Shown: positions 16,839 through 61,560 of the stretch, piece after piece
Layout of the letters: each line of letters starts with the position of its first letter
Numbering within the stretch: position 1 is the stretch's first letter
NCBI RefSeq assembly: GCF_036588685.1
Contig: NC_086378.1
Coordinates: 17,670,001-17,734,000, forward strand
Reading direction: 5' to 3'
Source of the DNA: Mytilus trossulus
Lineage: Eukaryota
DNA: 64,000 nt
Position numbers and translations under genes: made by a program
The notes under the pieces: model-generated
Told to the model about the DNA's origin: nothing
The model's input: only the letters and a program-made list of their open reading frames with translations
Databases searched by the model: none

Positions 16839-16945
16839 CCACTGAATTACAGGCTCTTGACTTGGGACAGGCACATACATAAATAATGTGGCGGGGTTAA
16901 ACATGTTAGTGGGATCCCAACCCTCCCCCTAACCTGGGACAGTGG
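16839..16945 (-). ncRNA. Twister ribozyme, type P5 (subfamily 1; one P4 mismatch)
   Basis: Same core as 30245-30350, except the P4 3' strand is CAAG instead of CAGG. Confidence 0.65.
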
Positions 16946-17178: not shown

Positions 17179-18412
17179 GATTCAATATTTTATTAAAGTC
17201 TCACTACTTGCAATACATATATATATAGTACATACAGAGTATATACACAATATAAAACAGATAATACACAAATATAAATTACAAGTACCATTCTATTAAG
17301 AATCATGAGAGACTATAAAACCATTTCTATATAAAACTAGTTAAAATACATACGATTATTAAAATCATTTCATTTTAAGAATATAAAAAGGTATTTCTTC
17401 TACTTAAAATATCAAAGCAGGTTTTGGCAACCATATCATAACAATTAATGTTTTTAAATAAATAAACAAATTTATCATCATCAGACAAATCATTAAAATC
17501 TACATTATATTTCATAGCTTCGCTATATAAACAAAAGCGCAAATCTGCATATAAAGGACATGATAGTATTACATGTTTTTCGTCTTCTATGTTATCATTA
17601 CACATAAAACACATCGTCTACATTTTTATTTTCATACCGCCCTGTTTCAATTCTCAACGGAGCTACTCCGCATCTAAATTTGGCAAAAGCACTCCTATAT
17701 CTATAAGATAATGTTTTAGATAAATATAATTCACTACCATAACTGTCTTTAATCAATTTATAAGTCCGCAATTTTTTACCAACATCTTGTGTTAATATTC
17801 TATTTTGCCAATTTTCTATATACTTATCAAGTAAAAATTTTTCTATCTGCATAATATTTTGTTTACACAGTACATTATTTAAATCAGTATACAAATCTAA
17901 ATTACATTCTTTAAACTTAGACATAATCCTAAAACACCAATTTCTTCTCTTATTAAGAGCATTTCTATAACACCATTTAAAAATTCTATAATTTTATCTA
18001 TCTGTGCACATTATGTTACATCTAGCCCAGTGTCGAAAAACACAAGTCCACTGCTTAACACTTGGAGGTCTCCAGCCCATATCCCCTTGAATTGCATCGT
18101 TTGGGGTATATTTACCCACACCCATAAAAGACCTGATAGCTCTGTTCTGGACAGCATTTATACATGAAAAATCTCTGGTGCCCCAAATGGCTGCACCATA
18201 ACTTATTACTGGCCAGACCAGGCTATCAAATAATTTAGTAAATGTACTGTACTGGAAACCTCCATGGGCCTTACTCTTTACAATAATCAAATTTAATGCC
18301 CTGTTCGCTGATTTGGCTACAGCTTTAGCCATTACATCATAATTTAAAAATTCAGTTAATAGTAAACCCAGATATTGATAGCTTTGTACAATACACATCT
18401 GCGTATCATTAA
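17179..18412 (-). mobile_element. 5'-truncated non-LTR retrotransposon (RTE-X or L2/Crack-like) 3' fragment
   Basis: YLGL, YGAAIWG, LRTYK, LRIETGRY and a C..C...EDEKHVILSCP.Y..LR knuckle; AATAAA near the 3' end; one stop and one frameshift. Confidence 0.8.
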
Positions 18413-18569
18413 ACATACATACAATGGATTTAGAGTAAAAACGTCATAAACAGCCAGAGAAAAACATGACCTTGTGCAATGCCAAGTTACAGGTATCGAC
18501 AGATTGTAGATCCATGAAAATGTATATGTATATAACATACTAGTACATATGTATATGTATATGTATATA

Positions 18570-19192
18570 TCATACAACAGTTGTTGGCATGACACGGGTT
18601 ATGTTCTTCTCATATATGTTATGATGGTATGATACTAAACCCCTAACAGGAAGGATTGTGCCTGATGTTCATATGATGAAATCATCATCTTTCAGTCAGT
18701 TTAATTGAAGTCTGGAGCTGGCATGTCAGTTAACTGCTAGTAGTCTGTTGTTATTTATGTATTATTGTCATTTTTTTGGTTACATCTTCTGACATCAGAC
18801 TCGGACTTCTCTTGAACTGAATTTTAATGTGCGTATTGTTATGCATTTACTTTTCTACATTGGTTAGAGGTATAGGGGGAGGGTTGAGATCTCACAAACA
18901 TGTTTAACCCCACCGCAATTTTGCGCCTGTCCCAAGTCAGGAGCCTCTGGCCTTTGCAAGTCTTGTATTATTTTAATTTTGGTTTCTTGTGTACAATTTG
19001 GAAATTAGTATGGCGTTCATTATCACAGAACAAGTATATATTTGTTTAGGGGCCAGCTGAAGGACGCCTCCGGGTGCGGGAATTTTTCGCTACATTGAAG
19101 ACCTAGGCCTGTTGGTGACCTTCTACTGTTTTTTTTTAATTGGTCGGGTTGTTGTCTCTTTGACACATTCCCCATTTCCATTCTCAATTTTA
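18570..19192 (+). mobile_element. Twister-bearing dispersed repeat, subfamily 2
   Basis: Related copies at about 28580-28972, 47945-48090 and 58078-58315 (inverted); fixed end ...ccattctcaatttt. Confidence 0.8.
18862..18952 (+). ncRNA. Twister ribozyme, type P5 (subfamily 2)
   Basis: GGGG-GA-GGG ... T^AA-CCC-CACC-[GCA attt TGC]-G-CCTG-TCCC-AAGT-CAGG, closed by GGTTAGAGGT/GCCTCTGGCC; predicted cut 18905/18906. Confidence 0.8.
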
Positions 19193-19199
19193 GTAATAT

Positions 19200-20020
19200 T
19201 TATTTAGCTTTTAATCTACTTATAACAAAGGCAATATTTATACCAATAAAAACAATATTAAATGATCTTATCACAGTGTTGAATAGGTAACCTTTAAGAA
19301 TAAGTTTATTAAGAGGAGCAACAAGTTCACATGGATCATTTCTAAATTTCCGGGCACGGTTAACAACATTTCCGTAAAAATAAGGATGTGCTATCCCGTT
19401 TGAAATAAGTTTTCTACAGGTAGAACCAAACTTCAAAACCAAATCTTTATATCTAAGGAAAAATTTAGTAAAGGTTTTAAGTAATTTATGGTAACGATAT
19501 CCCTGGTTTAATAATTTACCAGTGATACATAGGTTGCGTTCGTTAAAATCAAAAACGTCACAACAGACACGGGCATAGCGAACAATTTGTGAAATATAAA
19601 CACCGTAAGATGGTGCCAAAGGAACATCACCATCTAAAAATGGAAAATTAACAATAGGGAACGAAAAATCATCTCTTTTGTCGTAAATTTTAGTGTGTAG
19701 TTTCCCGTTTAAAACAGAAATATCTAAATCCAGGAAAGGACAGTTATTACCGAATACATTTGATTTATTTAAAGTAAGTTCCTTGGGGTAAATTGCAGCA
19801 GTATATTGAGAAAATTCTTGATAATTTAACGAAAAAGTATCATCAAGATAACGGTCAGTGTTGTTAAATTTATCAATTAAATGCAATTTCGACGGGTCTT
19901 TACTGAGTTTAGTCATAATCTGTGATTCGTAACAGTACAAAAACAAGTCTACTATTAAAGGGGCACAATTAGTGCCCATGGGGATACCTACAACCTGCCG
20001 ATAAATTTTGTTGTCGAAAC
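19200..20020 (-). mobile_element. Penelope-like element RT, 5'-truncated
   Basis: VGIPMGTNCAP..DLFLY, RYLDD, FLDL, YDKRDDF.F.IVNFPFL, YGVYISQ..RYAR; open for 259 aa. Confidence 0.85.
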
Positions 20021-20029
20021 CATATGATT

Positions 20030-20325
20030 GAAATTCATGTCAACACCGAAGTGTTGACTACCGGGCTGGTGATACTATTGGGAAGAGACGTTCACCAGAA
20101 GTAACATCAACCCAGTGTGAATAGTTATCAACTATACCAGTCTAATAATTCAAACCAGACGTCTTGCCTACATAAAACTTATCGGTCACGCTCAGTTAAA
20201 AAAAAGTTAGAAAGGCAAACAAGAACAAAGTTGGAAAGCACTGACACCCAAAATTTTCAAAAAGTTATGCCAAATGTTTTTATATGCCTGGGAGAAGAAA
20301 ATCCATAGTATTTCGAACAATTCAT
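20030..20325 (-). mobile_element. Degenerate hammerhead/pseudoknot repeat unit (retrozyme or pLTR-like) upstream of the RT fragment
   Basis: Contains gactaccgggctggtgatac...caccag...acccagtg and a decayed hammerhead; relatives at about 11737, 16343, 27235, 38140, 48960, 57930 and 63355. Confidence 0.6.
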
Positions 20326-22634: not shown

Positions 22635-24169
22635 TACAATTGCAGGACAAGATTCTAAGTTAAGACATGCATTCTTGGTTTGAAAGCAAGAATGTTACTG
22701 TTTAGCAATCATGTATAAAGGAAAACAACCTTTTGTTTGAAATTTGCATTACATTTTGTTTGTGGAATATATGCTTATGATGTAATATCAATAATACATA
22801 TATTTTTGTTGTTTAAAATACATGTGCATATAGTTTAAAATTTTTATTTTCGTAATAAAAATTGAAATGCTTGCTTTAAGTGTCTTGAGAGGGTGTGGAC
22901 TAACCCGGGAACAATGTGGTATTTTATCAACATATATTTTTGCATACAAATTGAAATGAAAATATAAAATTACCAAAAGAACATCTGGCTTTAACGTCCT
23001 AAGCCCTCGGTAAATCTCGTTTTATTTTATTTGGGCACAAAGAGTGCTTCAGCTATCTACGACGATGTTATTTTCGTTGCTAGTCAAGTAGTATTTTGTC
23101 AATAGATAAATATTTTTTTTCTATGTAGAATCCTTTAAATATTAAACATAGGAATAAATTCATTAAACCTAAATTTCTATCATCCACTATTCTGGAAAAC
23201 TGTATATGATAAGTGCAAAGGGGGAAACACTTTAACTAACTGCTCGAAACCAAAAAGAAACAGTTCCTATAAAAAAGAAGATGTGGTATGTTTGCCAATG
23301 AGACAACTATCCACAAGAGACCAAAATGACACAGACATTTAAAACAACTGTAGGTCACAATACGGCCTTAAACAATGAGCAAATTCTATACCGCAAAGAC
23401 AGATATAAAAGGCCCCGATATGACAATGTAAAACAATTCAAACGAGAAACACGTTATTTGTAAAAAAAAAAAAATAACAAAAAACAAAAATGTAATACAT
23501 AAACAAACGACAACCACTGAATTACATGATCCTGACTTGGGACAGGCACATACAGAAATAATGTGGCAGGGTTAAACATGTTAGCGAGATCTCATTCCTC
23601 CCTCTAACCTGGAACAGTGGTATAACAATACAACATAAGAACAATAAAAATTAGTTGAAAAAGGCTTTACATGTGTAAAATGTACTTGTATCATTGCTTA
23701 TGTTAATCTTAACATGCACAATAAACAGCTGAAAGTACATTAGAAGCATGATTTTTATCAATGCAAACTATCTTTCCTGGTTCTTTATGACAAACGCGGT
23801 GATTGGTTGTTTCCGTCAGGATTCAAAGAGAAAACTAGCGGCCTGGTTTATGCCAATGAAACAATAAACTAGAAACGGAATCAATAAGATTATTCATTAT
23901 TCTTGTTTCTTATATAAATGAGAATCGATTGTTTCCTATATGAAACTACTGGATATTTCTTAACAAACATTTATTCATATTTTTATTTGTAAATTTTGAT
24001 CTAAATATCGATCATGGTGTTATGGCACCTCGATTTTTGCAAAAATGAATTGATTCATGTGTCACTATATTTTTATTACAGATTAAGAATAATGCAGTTG
24101 CAGACTATCAAAAGTTGTTATTATTTATTGGTTTTTTTGGTGTTTTTTTTAATAATTTCTAATAAATTA

Positions 24170-26576: not shown

Positions 26577-29043
26577 CTTAAATTCAAATTAAAAGAAAAA
26601 AAGTAATTAATGTCGGAACTCATAACCTCAGATTTTTTGCTAGAAAAAAAAGTAGAAGACACTCAAATTTAGGAAATTGATATTATATGTAAAAGGTCAA
26701 ATTTTATTTTGACAGAAATGAAAACACTTAGAAAACCTCAGATCAAAACATCTTTAAGATTCAGCGATATGAACTCAACAAAAAACTGAGAATTAATTAA
26801 AGTAACTCAAGTTTAGCTAGCCAAAGTGGTTCAAGGGTATTTTGCTTCAACTTTTGTTAATAATTCCCGCCATCTTACCAACAAGTCTGCAGCTACTGTG
26901 AATGATAAAGGAAACAGGAAAGTATCGGTGTTCGAAGGTCATAAATATATTGTTTTCCGGGTTACAAACTCAAACCGAGAGAAACACATCAACTATGAGA
27001 AGAAAACACACAAGCAACAGGAAAACTAAAGTGCAACACAAAAAAGAAATCTTTAACATACACAGAAACGAGTTTTGCTACCAACTGTTATAATCTTTAA
27101 AAAAAAAGTATTTTAATCTCCTATATTCTTGTATCAAAAAGTTACTATGTAGAACATGGGTCACGCATTGATTTAACGAGGATCATTTGCACATATTTCC
27201 TTTGAAAAAATAACCATTTTATACATTATTGATGTTTATCAAATAACCTCATCATAGAAGCCAGGATTAAAATTTTGTATTTGTGTCAGACGGGCGTCTC
27301 GTTTTAAAAAAAAAAACACGCATCAGTGACGATTGAATTGACAGCAATTAAAAAGGCTGAAAAGTTTTGCCTAATACAGCTAAGGTATCTATTCATGAGG
27401 AAGAAAAGCCTCATTCTTTCAAAAATTCAAAATTGTTTACACTGTTAATATCTAATTATGACCATATCAATGATATTTCATGTCAAGACAGACGTGCTGA
27501 CTTCTGGACTGTTCATAACCTTGGGAAATTAAAACTTCAGTAGTGGCATCCAACACATAACAATTAAGTTCATAGGATTTATTAACTTTTTTTTACAAAT
27601 ACACGTCATTCCAAAAATAGACATGCATTTAACATAACCAGTCCAATCCATAGTAATGAATAGAATTTATTAAGTACAATAGTTCAATCATTCTTAAACA
27701 AATATATGTATTCATTGTTAAGTACATTTTAATTTTCTAGCAGCTACAGATATGATTTCGTTGTTTTTTCTTAATACTACTATCCATAGAGTTATCAATG
27801 AATGAGCAGATAAATATGACATGAAGTTACCACGATTGCCATCAACTAGTTCATGTAGGCCGTACGCATTAATTTATCGGTAAAAAAATGTAAGATTCTG
27901 TTATTACATGAATGAACAAATACAACAGACACAAAACAGTAAGTCATTTCAATTATACCATTATTATAAACTATGGGTAATATTCGGAAACAAACTATTT
28001 ATGTCATGGATGGATACCCTATCCCTTTGTTTTTTCTATTATATGATAGACCACAATGTCCTACGCATACCAATATTACATCAACATTAGTAAATTTTTG
28101 CCGCTGATCAGTCTTTCTCCATTACATAAACTTAATATAAACAAAATCTTCTTCTAAGTATTATTTTACTTATTTGTAATTTTCATTGGAAGCAGCAGAA
28201 AGATTGAGAAAAATACAATATGGACCTGTTTAAAAATTGGTTATCACCGTTAGTCGTTCAAATAAACTGTTTTGGTGTGCCCCATTGGTCATGGAATAGA
28301 TTAAGCGTGATATTCAATCAACATTGAATTAAAAGTACACATATTAGTTTTGTCTGAATATATAAGCAATCTTTATGAAACTAATGAGGCCACTTATTAG
28401 CAAATATGTCGCACTGAATCATGTAAACAACACATATTGTTGCAATCAGAGTAATTGTATTTTCGGTACCAGGGTCCTGGGTCAAAAACTTTACTCAGTA
28501 TTCGGAACAACCAATTGTTGCTCGAAAAACATAAACAATAATTTTCAAGACATGATGCACATTTAAATATATAATGATGGAATGAACTCGGACTTGGATT
28601 TAACAGAGCTTTACTGTGCGTATTGCTGTGTGTTTGTTTTTATACATTGGCTACACATATAGGAGTGGTTTGAGATCTCACAAAACATGTTTAACCCGGT
28701 GATATTTTTTTTTTTTTTTTTGCGAATGTCCAAAGTCAGAAGCTATTGTAAGTCTTGTTTGATATCTAATTTTACGCCATTTCTAAATTTATTATGACTT
28801 CGATTATCACTGAAATAGTACATATTTTTGTTTATGTCCTAGCTTAAGCACGCCTCAGGATACGGAATTTTCTCGCTGTGTTAAAGACCCTTTGGTGAAT
28901 TTTTGCTGTTTTTCTGCTTTTTGGTCGAGTTGTTGTCTCTTAGACACATTCCCTATTTCCATTTTTAATTTTAGGAATACATTTTTTGGTCAAGCATCCT
29001 TATAGTGTCCAAACTGTATTGTATGACTTTAATGTACGCTTAC

Positions 29044-30244: not shown

Positions 30245-30350
30245 CCACTGTCCCAGGTTAGGGGAGGGTTGGGATCCCGTTAACACGTTTAACCCCGCCA
30301 CATTATTTATGTATGTGCCTGTCCCAAGTCAGGAGCCTGTAATTCAGTGG
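30245..30350 (+). ncRNA. Twister ribozyme, type P5 (subfamily 1, core intact)
   Basis: CCACTG..AGGTT a GGG-GA-GGG ... T^AA-CCC-CGCC-[ACAT..ATGT]-G-CCTG-TCCC-AAGT-CAGG-AGCCT..CAGTGG; predicted cut 30290/30291. Confidence 0.8.
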
Positions 30351-32612: not shown

Positions 32613-33190
32613 CTATAATTTAAAAAATAAGATTCCTGCGTATAGAGAATATTGTGTATTTAGCATCAGTATGGCTCCTCAAACCGTGCTGTATATCGTG
32701 ATTATGAGAGCCAGGACAACAGTTTTCCGAACAATTCTTAAAAAAACCAGATATAAAATCCGTATAATGAGGATCCCGCTAACATATTTAACCCCGCCAC
32801 ATTATTTATGTATGTGCCTGTCCCAAGTCAGGAGCCTGTAAATTCAGTGGTTGTCGTTTGTTTATGTGTAACATATTTTTTCTCGTTCACTTTTTTACAA
32901 AAATAAGGCCGTTAGTGTTCTTGTTTGAATTGTTTTACAATTTCTTATAGGTGCCTTGTTTTTCTGATTATGTGGTATGGTTTTTGCTCATTGTTGAAGG
33001 CCGTACGATGACCTATAATTGTTAATGTCTGTGTTATTTTGGTCTTTTGTGGATAGTTGTCTCATAAGCAATCATACCACATCTTTTTTTTATATTATAA
33101 AGAAATTGTGTACCCGTTTGATATTAAGACTGAATTAAATTTCTCAATAAATCATTTACAGGTATGTTAAATGTATTAAGTCTTACTTAC

Positions 33191-52179: not shown

Positions 52180-52784
52180 AATGGTCCGTGCCTGTTACAT
52201 GAATTTATTTCAGAAATAAAACAATATTATAACTATCCGACTGAAATTTTAAATACAGAAACCGGCGAAGGGAGACAATCACAATTTATTTTATGTCTTA
52301 AAAGTCCGATTAATTGTAAGCCTAAGTTTCTTGCGTTAACGTACGTAAGTTACGTTTAAAACATAAAATTCTCTGTTGGGACGAAACGCAAGTCTAGCGT
52401 ATAACATTTTAAACCTGGTACCTTTTGTTAGCTATTTTTCACGTGTTTCTCTGGCCTATATGTTCTCTCCTTTCTTTTTAATTGTAGACCTGTCATGTAA
52501 AGTTACCATTTTTATGTTATATCCAACATTGCCAAAATTGCGTGGGGTTAGGCATGTCACACAACCACTTTAATCTACCTTTTTTATTCTGAAAATGTCC
52601 TGTCCCAAATCAGGAAAATGCCCATTGTTATATCAGAGTTCGTTTCTGTATATGTGTGTTACATTTTAAAGTTGTGTTGAATGTTTGCAAAAGTATGAAT
52701 TACTCTTTATAATAAGGATGTTCTTATTCTGGGCGGAAAATCCTAGCTGTTTTTATGCACATTTTTTTTTTATCTTTCTGCCTA

Positions 52785-54063
52785 ATCTAGAAGTGGCGTG
52801 AAAAAGATGTGGATACTTAAAAATTCCAAGGATCTTTTAGAGTACATACAATCTAGCTCTTTTTCATCTTGTAACAGTATTTAATCATTTGACTTATCTA
52901 CTCTTTACACAAGTATTCCACATTCCAAACTAAAGGACAAATTGAAAGAGTTGGTATTACTTTGCCTCATAAAAAAGATTGGCCATAGAAGTTACAAGTA
53001 TCTTGTCTTAGGGAGGGATAAATCCTACTTTGTAAAGAATCGCTCTGATTCAAACAAAATATTCTCTGACACCGATATTATCAAGATACTTTATTTCTTG
53101 ATTGACAACATATTTGTTACGTTCGGAAGACGTGTTTTTCAACAGACTGTCGACATCCCAATGGGAATAAACTGTGCCCCTCAATTTGCCGACTTGTTTC
53201 TTTATTATTATGAGGCTGACTTCATGCAAACTCTTCCTCGGAAGAAAGATAAAAAGTTAGCAATATCCTTTAACTATACTTTCCGCTATATAGATGACAT
53301 TCTTTCACTAAACAATTCAAAATTTGGTGACTATGTGGAACGCATATATCCAATCGAATTGGAGATAAAGGATACTACAGAACAGTTAAGTCGGCTTCAT
53401 ATCTTGACTTGCATCTAGAAATTGAAAATGAGGGTTGGTTGAAAACAAAACTTTACGACAAAAGAGATGATTTCAGCTTTTCAATTGTGAACTTTCCATT
53501 TCTAAGTAGCAACATTCCAGCAGCACCTGCATGCGGGGTATATATCTCCCAATTGATACGATATTCCCGTGCTTGCATTTCCTATCATGATTGCCTTGAT
53601 AGAGGGTTACAGCTCACAAGTAAACTATTAAACCAAGAGTTCCAAATGGTGAAGTTGTTATCATCCCTTCGTTAATTTTACGGACGCCATCACGAGTTGG
53701 TTGACCGTTATGGAATAACCGTTTCACAAATGATATCGGATATGTTCCTTACGTCGTAACTACAATCCCCTTCCCTTTTATGAATGTGACCTACCGAATT
53801 AGACTATTTAGCGGATTTGTAATCACATAAGCAACACGAAGGGTGCCACATGTGGAGCAGGATCTGCTTACCCTTCTGGAGCATCTGAGATCACCCTAGT
53901 TTTTGGTTGGGTTCGTGTTGTTTACTCTATAGTTTTCTATTTTGTGGCATGTGTGCTATTGTTTTTCTGTTTGTCTTTTTCATTTTTGGCCATGGCGTTA
54001 AAAGTCAGTTTGTTTAAGATTTATGAGTTTGACTGTCCCTTTGGTATCTTTCGTCCCTCTTTT
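52785..54063 (+). mobile_element. Penelope-like element: RT (frameshift near 53380, stops) plus structured 3' tail
   Basis: MWILKNS, FDLSTLYTSIPH, PMG.NCAP..ADLFLY, FRYIDD, YDKRDDF, GVYISQLIRYSR. Confidence 0.88.
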
Positions 54064-55769: not shown

Positions 55770-56270
55770 AGATATAGGAAGATGTGGTGTGAGTGCCAAT
55801 GAGACAACTCTCCTTCCAAATAACAATTTAAAAATTAAACCATTATGGGTTAAAGTACGACCTTCAACACGGAGCCTTGGCTCACACCGAACAACAAGCT
55901 ATAAAGGGCCCCAAAATTACTAGTGTAAAACCATTCAAACGGGAAAACCAACGGTCTTATCTATATAAACAAAACGAGAAACTAGAAACACGTATATATT
56001 ACATAAACAAACGACAACTACTGTACATCAGATTCCTGACTTAGGACAGGTGCAAACATTTGCAGCGGGATTAAACGTTTTAATGGATCCAAACCTTCTC
56101 CCTTTTTCTGAAACAATAGCATAACATCACAACATAGAAAAACATACGATAAAATATCAATTGGCAGACTTAACTCAATCTAAAAACGTATGATTACACA
56201 ATGAACGAATAAATTTGATCTGCGATATCTGAATACAAATGCACAGTTAATTAAATATTAGAGACAAACA
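55770..56270 (-). mobile_element. Twister-bearing dispersed repeat, subfamily 3
   Basis: Same layout as subfamily 1 but divergent; short terminal copy at about 15572-15645. Confidence 0.8.
56018..56119 (-). ncRNA. Twister ribozyme, type P5 (subfamily 3)
   Basis: TCAGA..GGGA-GA-AGG ... T^AA-TCC-CGCT-[GCAAA tg TTTGC]-A-CCTG-TCCT-AAGT-CAGG-aa-TCTGA; predicted cut 56073/56072. Confidence 0.82.
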
Positions 56271-57564: not shown

Positions 57565-58750
57565 CTAAGTTTTATTAAATAGAATAAAAATATTAGTCTT
57601 GGAACTTTAATCTTGGTTTTGCAGAGTATCTGGTAGAATGATAAAACTATAGTAGACACTAACAGATGGCAAAATAATAAACAAAAACAGACAATCAGAT
57701 TTTGGTTAAAGTGAAAAAGAATAAAAGCAAGAAAAAAGTTATCCAGACATAAGATTCAGTGTAACAAAATCAATCTAAAATTACGAATGAGTAAATGGAA
57801 TTTGAAAGAATATGAAGTTTTTTTCCATAGATCAATCAGCTGTATTAATTATTCTAGTAGATAACTTCTAGAACTAGAAATGTTTGCAGGGTCATAATCC
57901 GTCTCCTTAACAATCAAACATATCCGTAATTTTATCTTGACTCATCAATGCTTCCCTTCCTTTCACTTTGTATTTTATTTGGCTTTTTTTACATTTTTGA
58001 TTCGAGTATCACTGATGTGTACTTCGAACACAAAGTTATACGGAAATTCTGGTATATATGATGAGATTGTATAAATCTAATAAAATTGAGAATGGATATG
58101 GGGAAAATGTCAAAGAGGCAACAGTTCAGTGAACATTGACGTCATACTAAACTCCAAAACATATAACTGAACTCAAACGAAGAAAAACTACAAGAGTAAC
58201 AAAGACAAGAAGCTCTTGACTTGGGAAAGGCGCAAAAATCCCGTGGGGTTAAACATGTTTTGGAGATCTCCCCCCCCCCAGTAAACCTCTAGCAAATGTA
58301 CAATAAAGAAACCCATATCAATAGAGGTTTCCTGAACTGGTATGTATCAGGTGCAATTGGTATGTAACACAACCTTGCATGCTGTTATTGAGGTGTCGTT
58401 TAAAATATGTTATTATTGTATTCATCAATATGAAATTTAAAAAATCGAATTGCATATTTGTGATAAAAACCTTAATCTTTTATTTATTTACGATTTCACT
58501 GCTTCTAGAACACTTTGTTTGTGTTTTATACAATAATATTTATTGTATGCACAAGGAGAATGAACCAAACAGTCCTTACTGGTATTGAGTTGTTTGGACT
58601 TTTAGATTCTGAATATAGGTTTTGCGTTTCTGTATATCTTGGTGATTTTTTTTTTTTTTTTTGTGTATTTTCAGAAAATAAAATAGAATAAAGAATTTGT
58701 TCTGATATTTGAATAGAATTTGGAATAATAAGAAAATATATATTCATAAT

Positions 58751-60177
58751 ATATTAAAAACAACACGTTTAAAATTTCTTGCGTCCGAAGCGCTTTTCTT
58801 GATTTACCTTCATCAGGAACGCTCAAAGCCAAGCATTTGAAATCCGAAGATGTATAAGTACCGAAACCGTTGAAGAGCTGTATGTCAAAAAATACATAAA
58901 ATAAATAGACAATTTCATCTAAAGCCAACTTTGCCTGAGAGAGTTGAAACCTTAGTTTCTTAATAATTTATAAATTTATAAACGGACAATTTTAGTAAAG
59001 TTTGTTAAATCATGGCAGTACCGAAATACTGACTACCGAGCTGATGATACCCTCGGGGACTGATAGTCCACCAGCAGAGGTATCGACCCAGTGATGTAAA
59101 ATATTAAAAACAACACGTTAAAAATTTCTTGCGTCCGAAGCGCTTTTCTGGATTTACCTTCATCAGGAACGCTCAAAGCCAAACATTTGAAATCCGAAGA
59201 TGTATAAGTACCGAAACCGTTGAAGAGCTGTATGTCAAAAAATACCTAAAATAAATAGCCAATTTCATCTAAAGCCAACTTTGCCTGAGAGAGTTGAAAC
59301 CTTAGTTTCTTAATAATTTATAAATTTATAAACGGACAATTTTAGTAAAGTTTGTTAAAGCATGTCAGTACCGAAATACTGACTACCGAGCTGATGATAC
59401 CCTCGGGGACTGATAGTCCACCAGCAGAGGTATCCATCCAGTGATGTAAAATATTAAAAACAACACGTTAAAAATTTCTTGCGTCCGAAGCGCTTTCCTG
59501 GATTTACCTTCATCAGGAACGCTCAAAGCCAAACATTTGAAATCCGAAGATGTATAAGTACCGAAACCGTTGAAGAGCTGTATGTCAAAAAATACCTCAA
59601 ATAAATAGCCAATTTCATCTAAAGCCAACTTTGCCTGAGGGAGTTGAAACCTTAGTTTCTTAATAATTTATAAATTTATAAACGGACAATTTTAGTAAAG
59701 TTTGTTAAATCATGTCAGTACCGAAATACTGACTACCGAGCTGATGATACCCTCGGGGACTGATAGTCCACCAGCAGAGTTATCGACCCAGTGATGTAAA
59801 ATATCAAAAACAACACGTTAAAAATTTCTTGCGTCCGAAGCGCTTTTCTGGATTTACCTTCATCAGGAACGCTCAAAGCCAAGCATTTGAAATCCGAAGA
59901 TGTATAAGTACCGAAACCGTTGAAGAGCTGTATGTCAAAAAATACCTAAAATAAATAGCCAATTTCATCTAAAGCCAACTTTGCCTGAGAGAGTTTAAAC
60001 CTTAGTTTCTTAATAATTTATAAATTTATAAACGGACAATTTTAGTAAAGTTTGTTAAATTATGTCAGTACCGAAATACTGACTACCGAGCTGATGATAC
60101 CCTCGGGGACTGATAGTCCACCAGCAGAGGTATCGACCCAGTGATGTAAAATATTAAAAACAACACGTTAAAAATTT
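58751..60177 (-). repeat. Tandem array of 4 x 350 bp (plus about 27 bp), retrozyme-like
   Basis: Units start at 58751, 59101, 59451, 59801 and 60151; only a few substitutions between units. Confidence 0.95.
59131..59172 (-). ncRNA. Type I hammerhead ribozyme variant (also 59831-59872 and 54362-54403; mutated at 58781 and 59481)
   Basis: GCGUUC-CUGAUGA-A-GG-UAAAU-CC-A-GAAA-A-GCGC-U-UC^-GGACGC: 6-bp stem I, palindromic AAGCGCUU stem III. Confidence 0.75.
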
Positions 60178-61309
60178 ACTTTCGTAGTCGATTCTTAATT
60201 ACTTAGATGATATAATCTACCAAGGATACGTGAAAATGGCAAAATTACGTTCAAAATCGTGTTGGTTTCTCTTTAAAATCAATTGTTATTAACATATTCA
60301 TCTTTTCTATCATTGAAGCAACATTTTGTCTAAAACGCAACACATTGTTAAAATATCCTTTTCCTTATATTTTGTAACTGGACATTTCGGTTTATGTAAT
60401 CATTATAAAAAATGATGCTTATATAACTTATAGAACGAACATTTAACTTCAAAGAGGGTATAGATTTAAAAAAAAAAAATATTCTGATCCCCATTGTGAT
60501 GAAGAAAAAAATTCTGTGGAAACAGAGGACAAAACAAATATTATGAACACAAATTTCCCCCTTTCCTTATAGAGTTACATTTTGAAATAAATCACATGTT
60601 TGGTACAGGGAACAGTATATATGGGTGCTGGGAACGGTATATCAAAATATGTTCCTGTATGGTAGCAGTGAAATATGATATAACATTTCTGACTTAAACC
60701 ATATCACAACCAACCCCCTCGCTTTTTGAAGTTAAATGTATAATGAATATACGTATTATGACACTGACGAAAACCATTTCTAGAGTCAAAATATTTATCA
60801 GTACATTATGAGTGAATATAGAAGCGAGTAAATTTGTATACTGTACGAGCTGGAGAGTAGTATATATATAATTACAAGGTTTAATGTTAACCAATATCCA
60901 TCCATCAATCCTTTTGTCGTACTGCGATGCTAGAAAAACTGTTTACATCACTGCGTTTGTTTTAACTGATTACGCCAATAACATGACGCTATATTTGCAC
61001 TAATTTAATTTGAAAATGTCTTTCGATTTTTTTATTGTTCTACGTTAAATACTTTTAGTTTTTTTTACTTTTGTTAATAAATTTAATTCCTTCTTAAAAT
61101 ATATCTTATGTGTTTATATTTTCCAAAAACCTATCAAAAATATAAACTAAACTGAATCGTTTTATACCATTATAAAGTTATTACAAAAAAAATTACAAAG
61201 TTTTCTTGTTATTTACTTTTTACTGTCAACCTTTCGTGCCAACGGTTGTTTGAAAGCATAATCGAATACACGCAATATTGTGTATTAGAAAAATATGTTT
61301 ATTTCCGAT

Positions 61310-61560
61310 TCAAAGATCCTAAAAGTGAATCAACATTAATGTAAAAAATGCCATCCTTAATGGCCAGAAAACAGAATTGTACCCATATCCCATATGAATA
61401 AGTTTGTTTAAAGGTTTAGTTAGATTTTGAGGAAAATACCGACATTTTTGTGCTTTGGAAATGATATTACCATTAAAGATTGGATGTGAAATACCTGAAC
61501 GTATAAGATGTCTCCATGCTGATTTATATTTACGAATGATACAAATTATATGGAATTTTA
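61310..61560 (-). mobile_element. Penelope-like RT extreme C-terminal fragment
   Basis: RHLIRSGISHPIFNGNI...PLNKLI..GY matches the end of the 19200-19979 ORF. Confidence 0.7.

Follow-up and report, generated by a model that had tools for sequence, protein, structure and literature searches.

Can a twister ribozyme work if its stem P1 is missing and two short palindromes stand in its place, and what would such palindromes do? The question arises at positions 18884-18906 of the window, i.e., the whole stretch of 64,000 nucleotides of Mytilus trossulus DNA that was analysed. An earlier note on this DNA had claimed that no ordinary P1 lies between the T1 strand and the cleavage UAA, and that the interval is filled by two self-complementary words which stay palindromic while they change. 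We here describe the motif as a type-P5 twister whose P1 is replaced by a linker of two palindromes. As to the function of this linker, we see an even chance that pairing with a second copy takes the place of P1 and likely favours cutting.

Results

Layout of the motif

The linker (18884-18906) reads TT-GAGATCTC-AC-AAACATGTTT-A and follows the T1 strand (GA-GGG, 18879-18883); at its 3' side it leads into the predicted cleavage loop U/AA (18905-18907), the stroke marking the predicted cut. The parts follow each other in the permuted order P5a, P2a, GA, T1 strand, linker, N/AA, P2b, T2, P3, P4, L4, P5b, and the pairing of P5 is kept although its sequence varies from family to family. The element and its parts are as follows:

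18576..19192, + strand: 3' end of a family A Naiad Penelope-like element, 5'-truncated (617 bp; boundaries common to other genomic copies; next to an AT/(TA)-rich run)
18611..18675, + strand: SECIS-like hairpin (Rfam SECIS_1 28.4 bits, gathering score 35; L228, L237 and L255 give 29-33 bits at the corresponding place)
18862..18870, + strand: 5' strand of P5, where the permutation opens (partner 18944-18952)
18875..18878, + strand: P2 5' strand GGGG (partner 18908-18911)
18879..18883, + strand: GA, with G at the general-base position of twisters, and T1 strand GGG; same as the L1 'GAGGG' in Table 1 of PMC8501958; T1 covaries
18885..18894, + strand: palindrome 1, TGAGATCTCA, predicted intermolecular duplex (self-duplex -14.0 kcal/mol versus hairpin 0.0; covariation over 21 distinct 8-mers)
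18897..18904, + strand: palindrome 2, AACATGTT, ending one base 5' of the scissile N, where P1 would be expected to end (self-duplex -6.4 kcal/mol; so anchored in 30 of 31 linkers)
18905..18907, + strand: predicted cleavage site U/AA, the cut separating 18905 from 18906 (assigned from homology with L1 of twisters; upstream repeats begin at -2 to +43)
18908..18925, + strand: P2 3' strand CCCC, T2 strand AC (GC in most family copies) and P3 hairpin
18926..18941, + strand: P4 stem and L4 loop (U-CCC-AA-GU) holding the partners of T1 and T2 (weak Rfam twister-P1 matches over the same half in L228 and L257)
18944..18952, + strand: P5 3' strand (partner 18862..18870)

Host element

Longer copies of the 617-bp repeat are immediately preceded, in the same orientation, by an RT ORF, and reads diverge past 19192; the order within the element is ORF stop, SECIS, twister, 286 nt and element end. 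The full ORF of L211 (275-3300) comprises 1,008 codons if TGA is read as Sec. Its RT is 98% identical, and a motif search revealed a GIY-YIG-type motif (IIY..YVG) at the N-terminus, ahead of the RT in the same ORF. In-frame TGA codons are found at Cys-type positions, four in L211 and two to six in other full ORFs. The CxC and DKA motifs, given as Naiad marks in the accessible part of PMC8557442, are present, as are the pLTR or tandem arrangement and the 5' truncation known from Naiads. The 5' ends are 99% identical in the window's own genome, and the motif of one family in this genome is identical to the published Naiad_Mgal consensus 3' end. Pfam gave no RT match for the C-terminal RT fragments, no relative of the Naiad RT was found on viral contigs, and Rfam at gathering score found no canonical hammerhead in the window. 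Judged by these sequence features, the host of the motif is a selenoprotein-coding Naiad Penelope-like retrotransposon with the predicted twister in its 3' UTR. Beyond what the earlier note had proposed, the motif is, by the order of its predicted parts, a type-P5 permutation in a Naiad 3' UTR.

Naiads have been described without canonical hammerheads, and the word 'twister' is absent from the accessible text and supplement of that study, which lists selenoprotein Naiads for clams and spiders only, mussel Naiads not being among them (PMC8557442). In this genome, we observed selenoprotein-coding Naiad families with four to five TGA codons at Cys-type sites and a SECIS (L211:275-3300; window 18611-18675).

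The twister core

A first descriptor, which made no demand on the linker, was used to scan the sequence downstream of the Naiad RT in 80 metagenome loci. It found the fold on the sense strand in 18 and on the antisense strand in 2 of them, while one sense match (L238) looks spurious. A stricter descriptor gave 3 matches in a resampled genome sample of 1.56 Mb. With an HMM built from 26 seeds, 16 of them from metagenome Naiad-RT loci, a sense match was obtained at most 1.3 kb downstream in 33 of the 41 loci with at least 600 nt of downstream sequence, and 2 more at about 1.31 kb. No twister was found in six metagenome loci with long downstream sequence (L238, L256, L267, L279, L282, L288).

The cleavage loop N/AA is U/AA in the window copy and holds AA in the 43 of 47 loci that could be parsed, where parts were cut by anchors only and AA was required by the parser. 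Among these 43 loci the general-base GA follows P2 in 42, L271 having AA instead. P4 with its closing G-C and L4 with U...AA are present as well. Three helices covary: P2 (44 Watson-Crick pairs out of 60 versus 34.4 permuted, reached in 0 of 10,000 permutations), T1 (21 of 24 versus 15.3; 36 of 10,000) and P4 (21 of 24 versus 14.5; 33 of 10,000). T1 occurs as GGG/CCC, AGG/CCU, GGU/ACC, AGA/UCU and GGA/UCC, and published consensus ends, read by eye, show UCG/CGA and GUG/CAC. For T2 in a fixed register the covariation is not significant (900 of 10,000 permutations); with the P2 register chosen per sequence, 11 of 12 positions are paired over 6 combinations (663 of 20,000 permutations). P2 has 4 bp in the window copy and in 20 of the 43 loci, and 3 bp plus a bulged base in the remaining 23.

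The Rfam twister models did not match the window copy, either at gathering score or at E<=10, and the twister-P1 model gave 21-23 bits in L228 and L257 versus a gathering score of 67.2, so that the motif stays below the score that Rfam demands of a member. Since it fails both the P1 and the Rfam test, we class it as a twister variant and not as a canonical member. The covarying stems around the conserved positions very probably represent a functional twister in the active families.

A self-inhibited monomer was considered separately. In the minimum-energy fold of the window copy the T1 strand pairs across the cut. However, this is not general, as the first scissile adenines were paired in 17 of 43 folds, which were calculated without pseudoknots and are unable to rank the active state.

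The linker

For the analysis of the linker, 33 distinct sequences of 19-24 nt were collected from 46 loci (this genome and metagenome contigs), and 31 corrected linkers served for positional counts. In the register of P1, the best run in the 31 linkers comprises 0-4 pairs, largely G.U, and the duplex between the 5' and the 3' half of the linker has -4.0 to +0.6 kcal/mol. On these pairings and energies no canonical P1 can form, and in this respect the earlier reading holds: there is no ordinary P1 and no stable duplex in its place.

As a measure of chance, palindromes of at least 4 bp in both halves occur in 175 of the 63,979 21-mers of the window. Palindrome 1 has at least 4 Watson-Crick bp in 31 of 33 distinct linkers (2,000 shuffles: mean 1.3, maximum 6) and comprises 21 distinct 8-mers, in which, from the centre outward, 20, 21, 21 and 20 out of 21 positions form Watson-Crick pairs; this pairing was equalled in 0 of 20,000 left-right permutations. 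The self-complementary words do stay palindromic while they change, as claimed before. Their central pair is CG in 6, GC in 5, AU in 5, UA in 4 and GU in 1 of the words, and on an RT tree of 35 loci, which is rough and includes frameshifted translations, it changed no fewer than 11 times, and no tip was left unpaired. Within family C, the palindrome 1 words TGGTACCA, TGGATCCA and TGGGCCCA are found in 2, 5 and 3 of the 10 entries listed (from 20 loci), each of them multi-copy, and another single clade comprises GCTATAGC, GCTGTAGC and GCTGCAGC. In each of the 31 linkers, palindrome 1 is centred on linker position 5.5-7.5.

Palindrome 2 ends at N-2 in 30 of 31 linkers if at least 3 pairs are asked for, and in 25 if at least 4 are (means after shuffling, 7.7 and 3.0); it is missing from one linker, L264. 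The centre of palindrome 2 is AU, UA, CG, a tandem U.G (5 linkers, the A.C mirror image occurring in none) or 1-2 unpaired bases (9 of 31), the last form being compatible with a tiny hairpin as well. As a duplex, palindrome 2 has little stability, with about -3.5 to -12 kcal/mol. The self-duplex of the linker reaches -12 to -23 kcal/mol versus 0 to -2.6 for its hairpin.

Since the two central bases of palindrome 1 are unable to pair within one strand, the fact that they covary speaks for a duplex formed by two copies, and since G.U occurs on the sense strand only, pairing as RNA is favoured over pairing as DNA. Two-copy pairing is supported as the simplest account of palindromes with a covarying, G.U-tolerant centre. 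We therefore regard pairing between copies as likely, via palindrome 1 most likely and via palindrome 2 probably.

Other copies and neighbours

With nhmmer, 10 copies of the motif were found in the window, 9 of them nearly whole. Besides the copy described above, they include:

16850..16936, - strand: family B copy, GGGATCCC / AACATGTT
23525..23611, - strand: family B-like copy, GAGATCTC / AACATGTT
28661..28742, + strand: family A-like copy, decayed
30256..30340, + strand: family B copy, GGGATCCC; palindrome 2 with one A.C mismatch
32771..32839, + strand: family B copy, truncated within the linker
52534..52620, + strand: family D-like copy, decayed
56026..56110, - strand: family C copy, TGGATCCA / AACGTT, T1 = AGG/CCU
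58210..58279, - strand: family A-like copy, decayed

All words quoted in the earlier note were recovered in the window: GGGATCCC/AACATGTT at 16918-16897 (-), GAGATCTC/AAACATGTTT at 18886-18907 (+) and TGGATCCA/AAACGTTT at 56091-56071 (-). A rough extrapolation from 92 matches in 1.5 Mb gives about 80,000 copies of the motif in the 1.3-Gb genome.

The copy at 18576..19192 is a single truncated end without a same-family partner beside it. Its nearest neighbour lies on the other strand and belongs to another family, so the window copy is probably inert unless paired in trans.

Several further repeats surround these copies. An RT fragment of another Naiad family (19200-20039, -; 70% identity to family A) lies tail-to-tail with the studied element at a distance of 8 bases, and the Naiad end is inserted into or beside the broken C-terminal part of another RT-type element (17375-18443, -; weak zf-RVT match). 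More Naiad-like RT fragments were observed at 53074-53735 (+) and 61439-61540 (-). The region 58747-60185 holds 4.1 copies of a 350-bp hammerhead retrozyme like the Mytilus retrozyme, and on the minus strand each of these units bears a motif resembling the 5' beginning of Naiads published from molluscs and hemichordates. Elsewhere, a tandem array (L106:2978-6191) is built of 42-bp units that stem from the motif's P4/L4/P5b half.

Tandem partners and a possible cleavage footprint

Is a partner at hand in full-length elements? For family A, the analysis covered 35 of the best 40 full-length 5' ends, leaving aside the last four and an inner tandem copy, and 34 of the 35 were mappable. A complete second twister lies directly upstream in 21 of the 34; in the others the upstream repeat starts near the cut (5), at +223 (1), at the junction (3) or inside the body (4). 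Head-to-tail units of 4.02 kb are present. The idea that pairing takes place between two transcripts or repeat units thus gains support from tandem copies as possible partners, next to the covarying central pair and the tolerance of G.U.

Relative to the predicted cut, the short upstream repeats start at -2, +8, +21, +35 and +43 (5 of 6; -200 to +120). Ordinary truncated ends fall into the interval -5 to +45 in 2 of 9 or 4 of 16 cases versus 5 of 6 for upstream repeats (Fisher 0.035 and 0.023), with the reservation that the interval was set after three starts had been seen, that the second batch alone gave 2 of 3, and that numbers are small and copies not all independent. The clustered starts fit cutting in the upstream repeat, while RT stalling on the structure could produce them instead.

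Ordinary truncated copies in six families show no pile-up of 5' starts at the cut. Similarly, the RNA run X24 placed 8,259 reads in both orientations on the element end, with no pile-up of ends at the cut. The hammerhead retrozyme unit, used as control in X24, had no pile-up listed at its cut site either; this site is about 40 nt from the edge, which makes for a weak control, and the blank in the RNA reads therefore says little. Most copies span the cut site, so most templates were uncut or rejoined. PMC11167929 reports the same absence of an end signal for a PLE hammerhead that depends on protein for its cleavage, this cleavage being dispensable for insertion in vitro; the hammerhead of Poseidon_Ac is not needed for in vitro insertion.

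Range across animals

Of 54 Naiad consensus sequences published, 51 were read by eye over their last ~480 letters, and the double-palindrome twister fold was recognized in 8 of these 51 3' ends, from a ctenophore, cnidarians and bivalves. The ctenophore Naiad_Mley has the palindromes GACGCGTC and AATCGATT and UCG/CGA as T1, while T1 is GUG/CAC in the cnidarian Naiad-4_Chem (GGGCCC/CACGTG) and Naiad-1_Movir (GGGTACCC/CACATGTG); the bivalve Naiads are Mgal, Bpla, Mphi, Scon and Mmer. Across the three phyla, the catalytic G, the two As, the U..AA of L4 and the G-C closing pair are kept while the stems vary.

A second structured motif was observed in Naiad 3' UTRs, which reads GGGTG-palindrome-CAG..GCTYAC..palindrome-CACCTG within an outer stem and whose palindromes change as well. 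It lies directly after the Naiad RT in L261:1522, L262:1074 and L278:1183, occurs in this genome in L298, L309, L324, L340 and other loci, and is found in the published 3' ends of Naiad_CGi, Sglo, Olur, Tgra, Pmar, both Skow, both Pfla and Naiad-1/2_Chem. It matched no Rfam ribozyme and is possibly another, putative, self-cleaving RNA. In addition, published Naiad 3' ends of Acropora, nematodes, octopus and an acanthocephalan contain hammerhead-like cores by eye, some with short palindromes. Thus, the 3' slot of Naiads seems to be occupied by different ribozymes.

Discussion

How the palindromes could act

If two copies pair, each palindrome would join its counterpart (palindrome 1 with 1', palindrome 2 with 2'), giving two side-by-side helices of about 8-10 bp that join two cores. 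Engineered paranemic RNA motifs likewise consist of two side-by-side helices of about 8 bp. The duplex of palindrome 2 would abut N/A as P1 does. The partner would usually be the other twister of the same tandem or pLTR transcript, or another RNA of the same family, and the differing palindrome words would make pairing family-specific. Cutting in the upstream repeat would create the 5' end of some template RNAs, whereas slow or conditional cutting would leave most templates whole. A ribozyme in the 3' UTR depends on such restraint, as the start of copying lies about 286 nt downstream of the cut.

Palindrome pairing may thus control when the predicted ribozyme cuts. How far this goes is a matter of degree. 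That pairing raises cleavage seems to us as plausible as its opposite, and if pairing is granted, the chances that it gates cleavage are about evenly balanced. The most far-reaching version, which we put forward tentatively, is a natural dimer-gated twister found from ctenophores to bivalves: two side-by-side palindromic helices would replace P1 in trans, the words would form a family-specific self-recognition code, and the RNA would cut only with a second copy of the same family, in the pLTR or in another transcript, while an as yet unclassified double-palindrome RNA would take the same slot in oyster and hemichordate Naiads.

The strongest alternative, which we consider somewhat unlikely, is that the monomer cuts without P1 and that the palindromes pair copies for another step of retrotransposition, for example by holding together two RNAs or two cut 5' products, be it for an RT that acts as a dimer, for template switching, for the formation of tandems or for circularisation. 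Twisters can do without P1, and an imperfect P1 does not reduce their cleavage (PMC5408937, PMC11662667). The earlier note was right to state that twisters tolerate a minimal P1, and for this very reason pairing need not gate cleavage and a monomer may cut. Both palindromes remain on the 5' product of the cut, and for one PLE protein a dimer is predicted (PMC11167929). The unrelated second Naiad 3' motif also has two changing palindromes, which suggests a need independent of the scaffold and makes it plausible that pairing may serve copying or circularisation instead. However, the fixed distance of palindrome 2 to the scissile base and the narrow placement of palindrome 1 are tighter than a free dimer signal requires. 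Furthermore, a fast monomer would sever the ORF from the start of copying, yet most copies span the site.

An action of the palindromes as DNA, either as cruciforms or as sites for a protein that binds DNA as a dimer, e.g., the endonuclease of the element, with their place in the twister being incidental, is improbable. Most words are indeed perfect DNA palindromes of 8-10 bp, and several resemble common recognition sites. In contrast to a protein site, however, the sequence varies freely over the 21 words, a cruciform would not select the central pair, the G.U centres are confined to the sense strand, and the element ends are about 160-310 nt away. It is quite improbable that each word forms a small intramolecular hairpin which replaces P1 in a monomer: although palindrome 2 words of odd length (AACCAGGTT, AACCTGGTT, AGTCAGACT) can close a 3-nt loop, the central bases of palindrome 1 would be a free loop, yet they are complementary in 21 of 21 words, and linker hairpins are near 0 kcal/mol. 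Finally, a catalytically silent twister-like fold, kept for RT or protein binding or for dimerisation only, would agree with RNA reads lacking an end pile-up, with most copies deriving from uncut RNA and with Rfam scores far below gathering, but it is very improbable given that the catalytic positions listed above are kept in three phyla while stems vary and that upstream-repeat starts cluster near the cut.

Significance

Naiads are among the most abundant retroelements in many invertebrates and were described without the ribozyme of other Penelope-like elements. This description fed the idea that such ribozymes are mere parasites of PLEs. A predicted twister in that slot in three phyla argues for a ribozyme and a palindrome pairing signal as part of the Penelope-like life cycle. 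If control by palindrome pairing holds true, it would represent an RNA switch that senses its own copy number with orthogonal words, which would be useful for synthetic biology.

Comparison with known systems

The host agrees with the Naiads of PMC8557442 (accessible part), including the selenoprotein Naiads of clams and spiders, in its N-terminal GIY-YIG, CxC, DKA, C-terminal RT, pLTR or tandem arrangement, TGA at Cys sites and a SECIS after the stop. The motif itself resembles the type-P5 twister as far as described in the accessible parts of PMC5408937 and PMC10085705: the termini lie in P5, and P2, P3, P4, L4, T1, T2, GA and N/AA come in the expected order. It differs in that the P1 hairpin is replaced by a linker of 19-24 nt with two covarying palindromes, that P2 is a bulged 3-bp stem in about half of the loci, and that the Rfam score is below gathering. 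Natural twisters of type P1, bivalve ones included, are listed in the supplement of PMC11662667, and some of the present sequences may have been listed before, there or in the original type-P5 lists. In the openly accessible literature that was searched, we found no natural dimeric twister and no report of a double-palindrome twister of Naiads.

The core of the Naiad motif is, in permuted form, almost letter for letter that of the Schistosoma twisters in Table 1 of PMC8501958. The Schistosoma mansoni T-variant twisters of Perere-3 are likewise borne by a retrotransposon, have a poor or absent P1 and show genomic starts near the cut. However, they are of type P1, lie at the 5' end of a LINE and gain P1 from the target-site duplication, whereas the present motif is of type P5, lies in the 3' UTR or pLTR of a Penelope-like element and bears conserved palindromes; the words 'dimer' and 'palindrom' are absent from the accessible text of PMC8501958.

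The parallel named in the earlier note, i.e., Penelope-associated hammerheads that use palindromic stems to cleave as dimers, has its precedent in PLE hammerheads with a palindromic stem III that act as dimers (PMC6765202, accessible part). Like these and the dimeric minimal hammerheads of amphibian retrozymes (PMC7229834, accessible part), our motif lies in the pLTR of a tandem element and has a palindrome next to the core in place of a stable stem, and for those hammerheads a dimer was proposed or shown. The dimeric PLE hammerheads, as described there, belong to another ribozyme class and have one short palindromic stem-loop, in contrast to the two separate palindromes of 6-10 bp found here. 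A hammerhead core is ruled out by the twister-type core, and what the two systems share is the logic of the dimer only.
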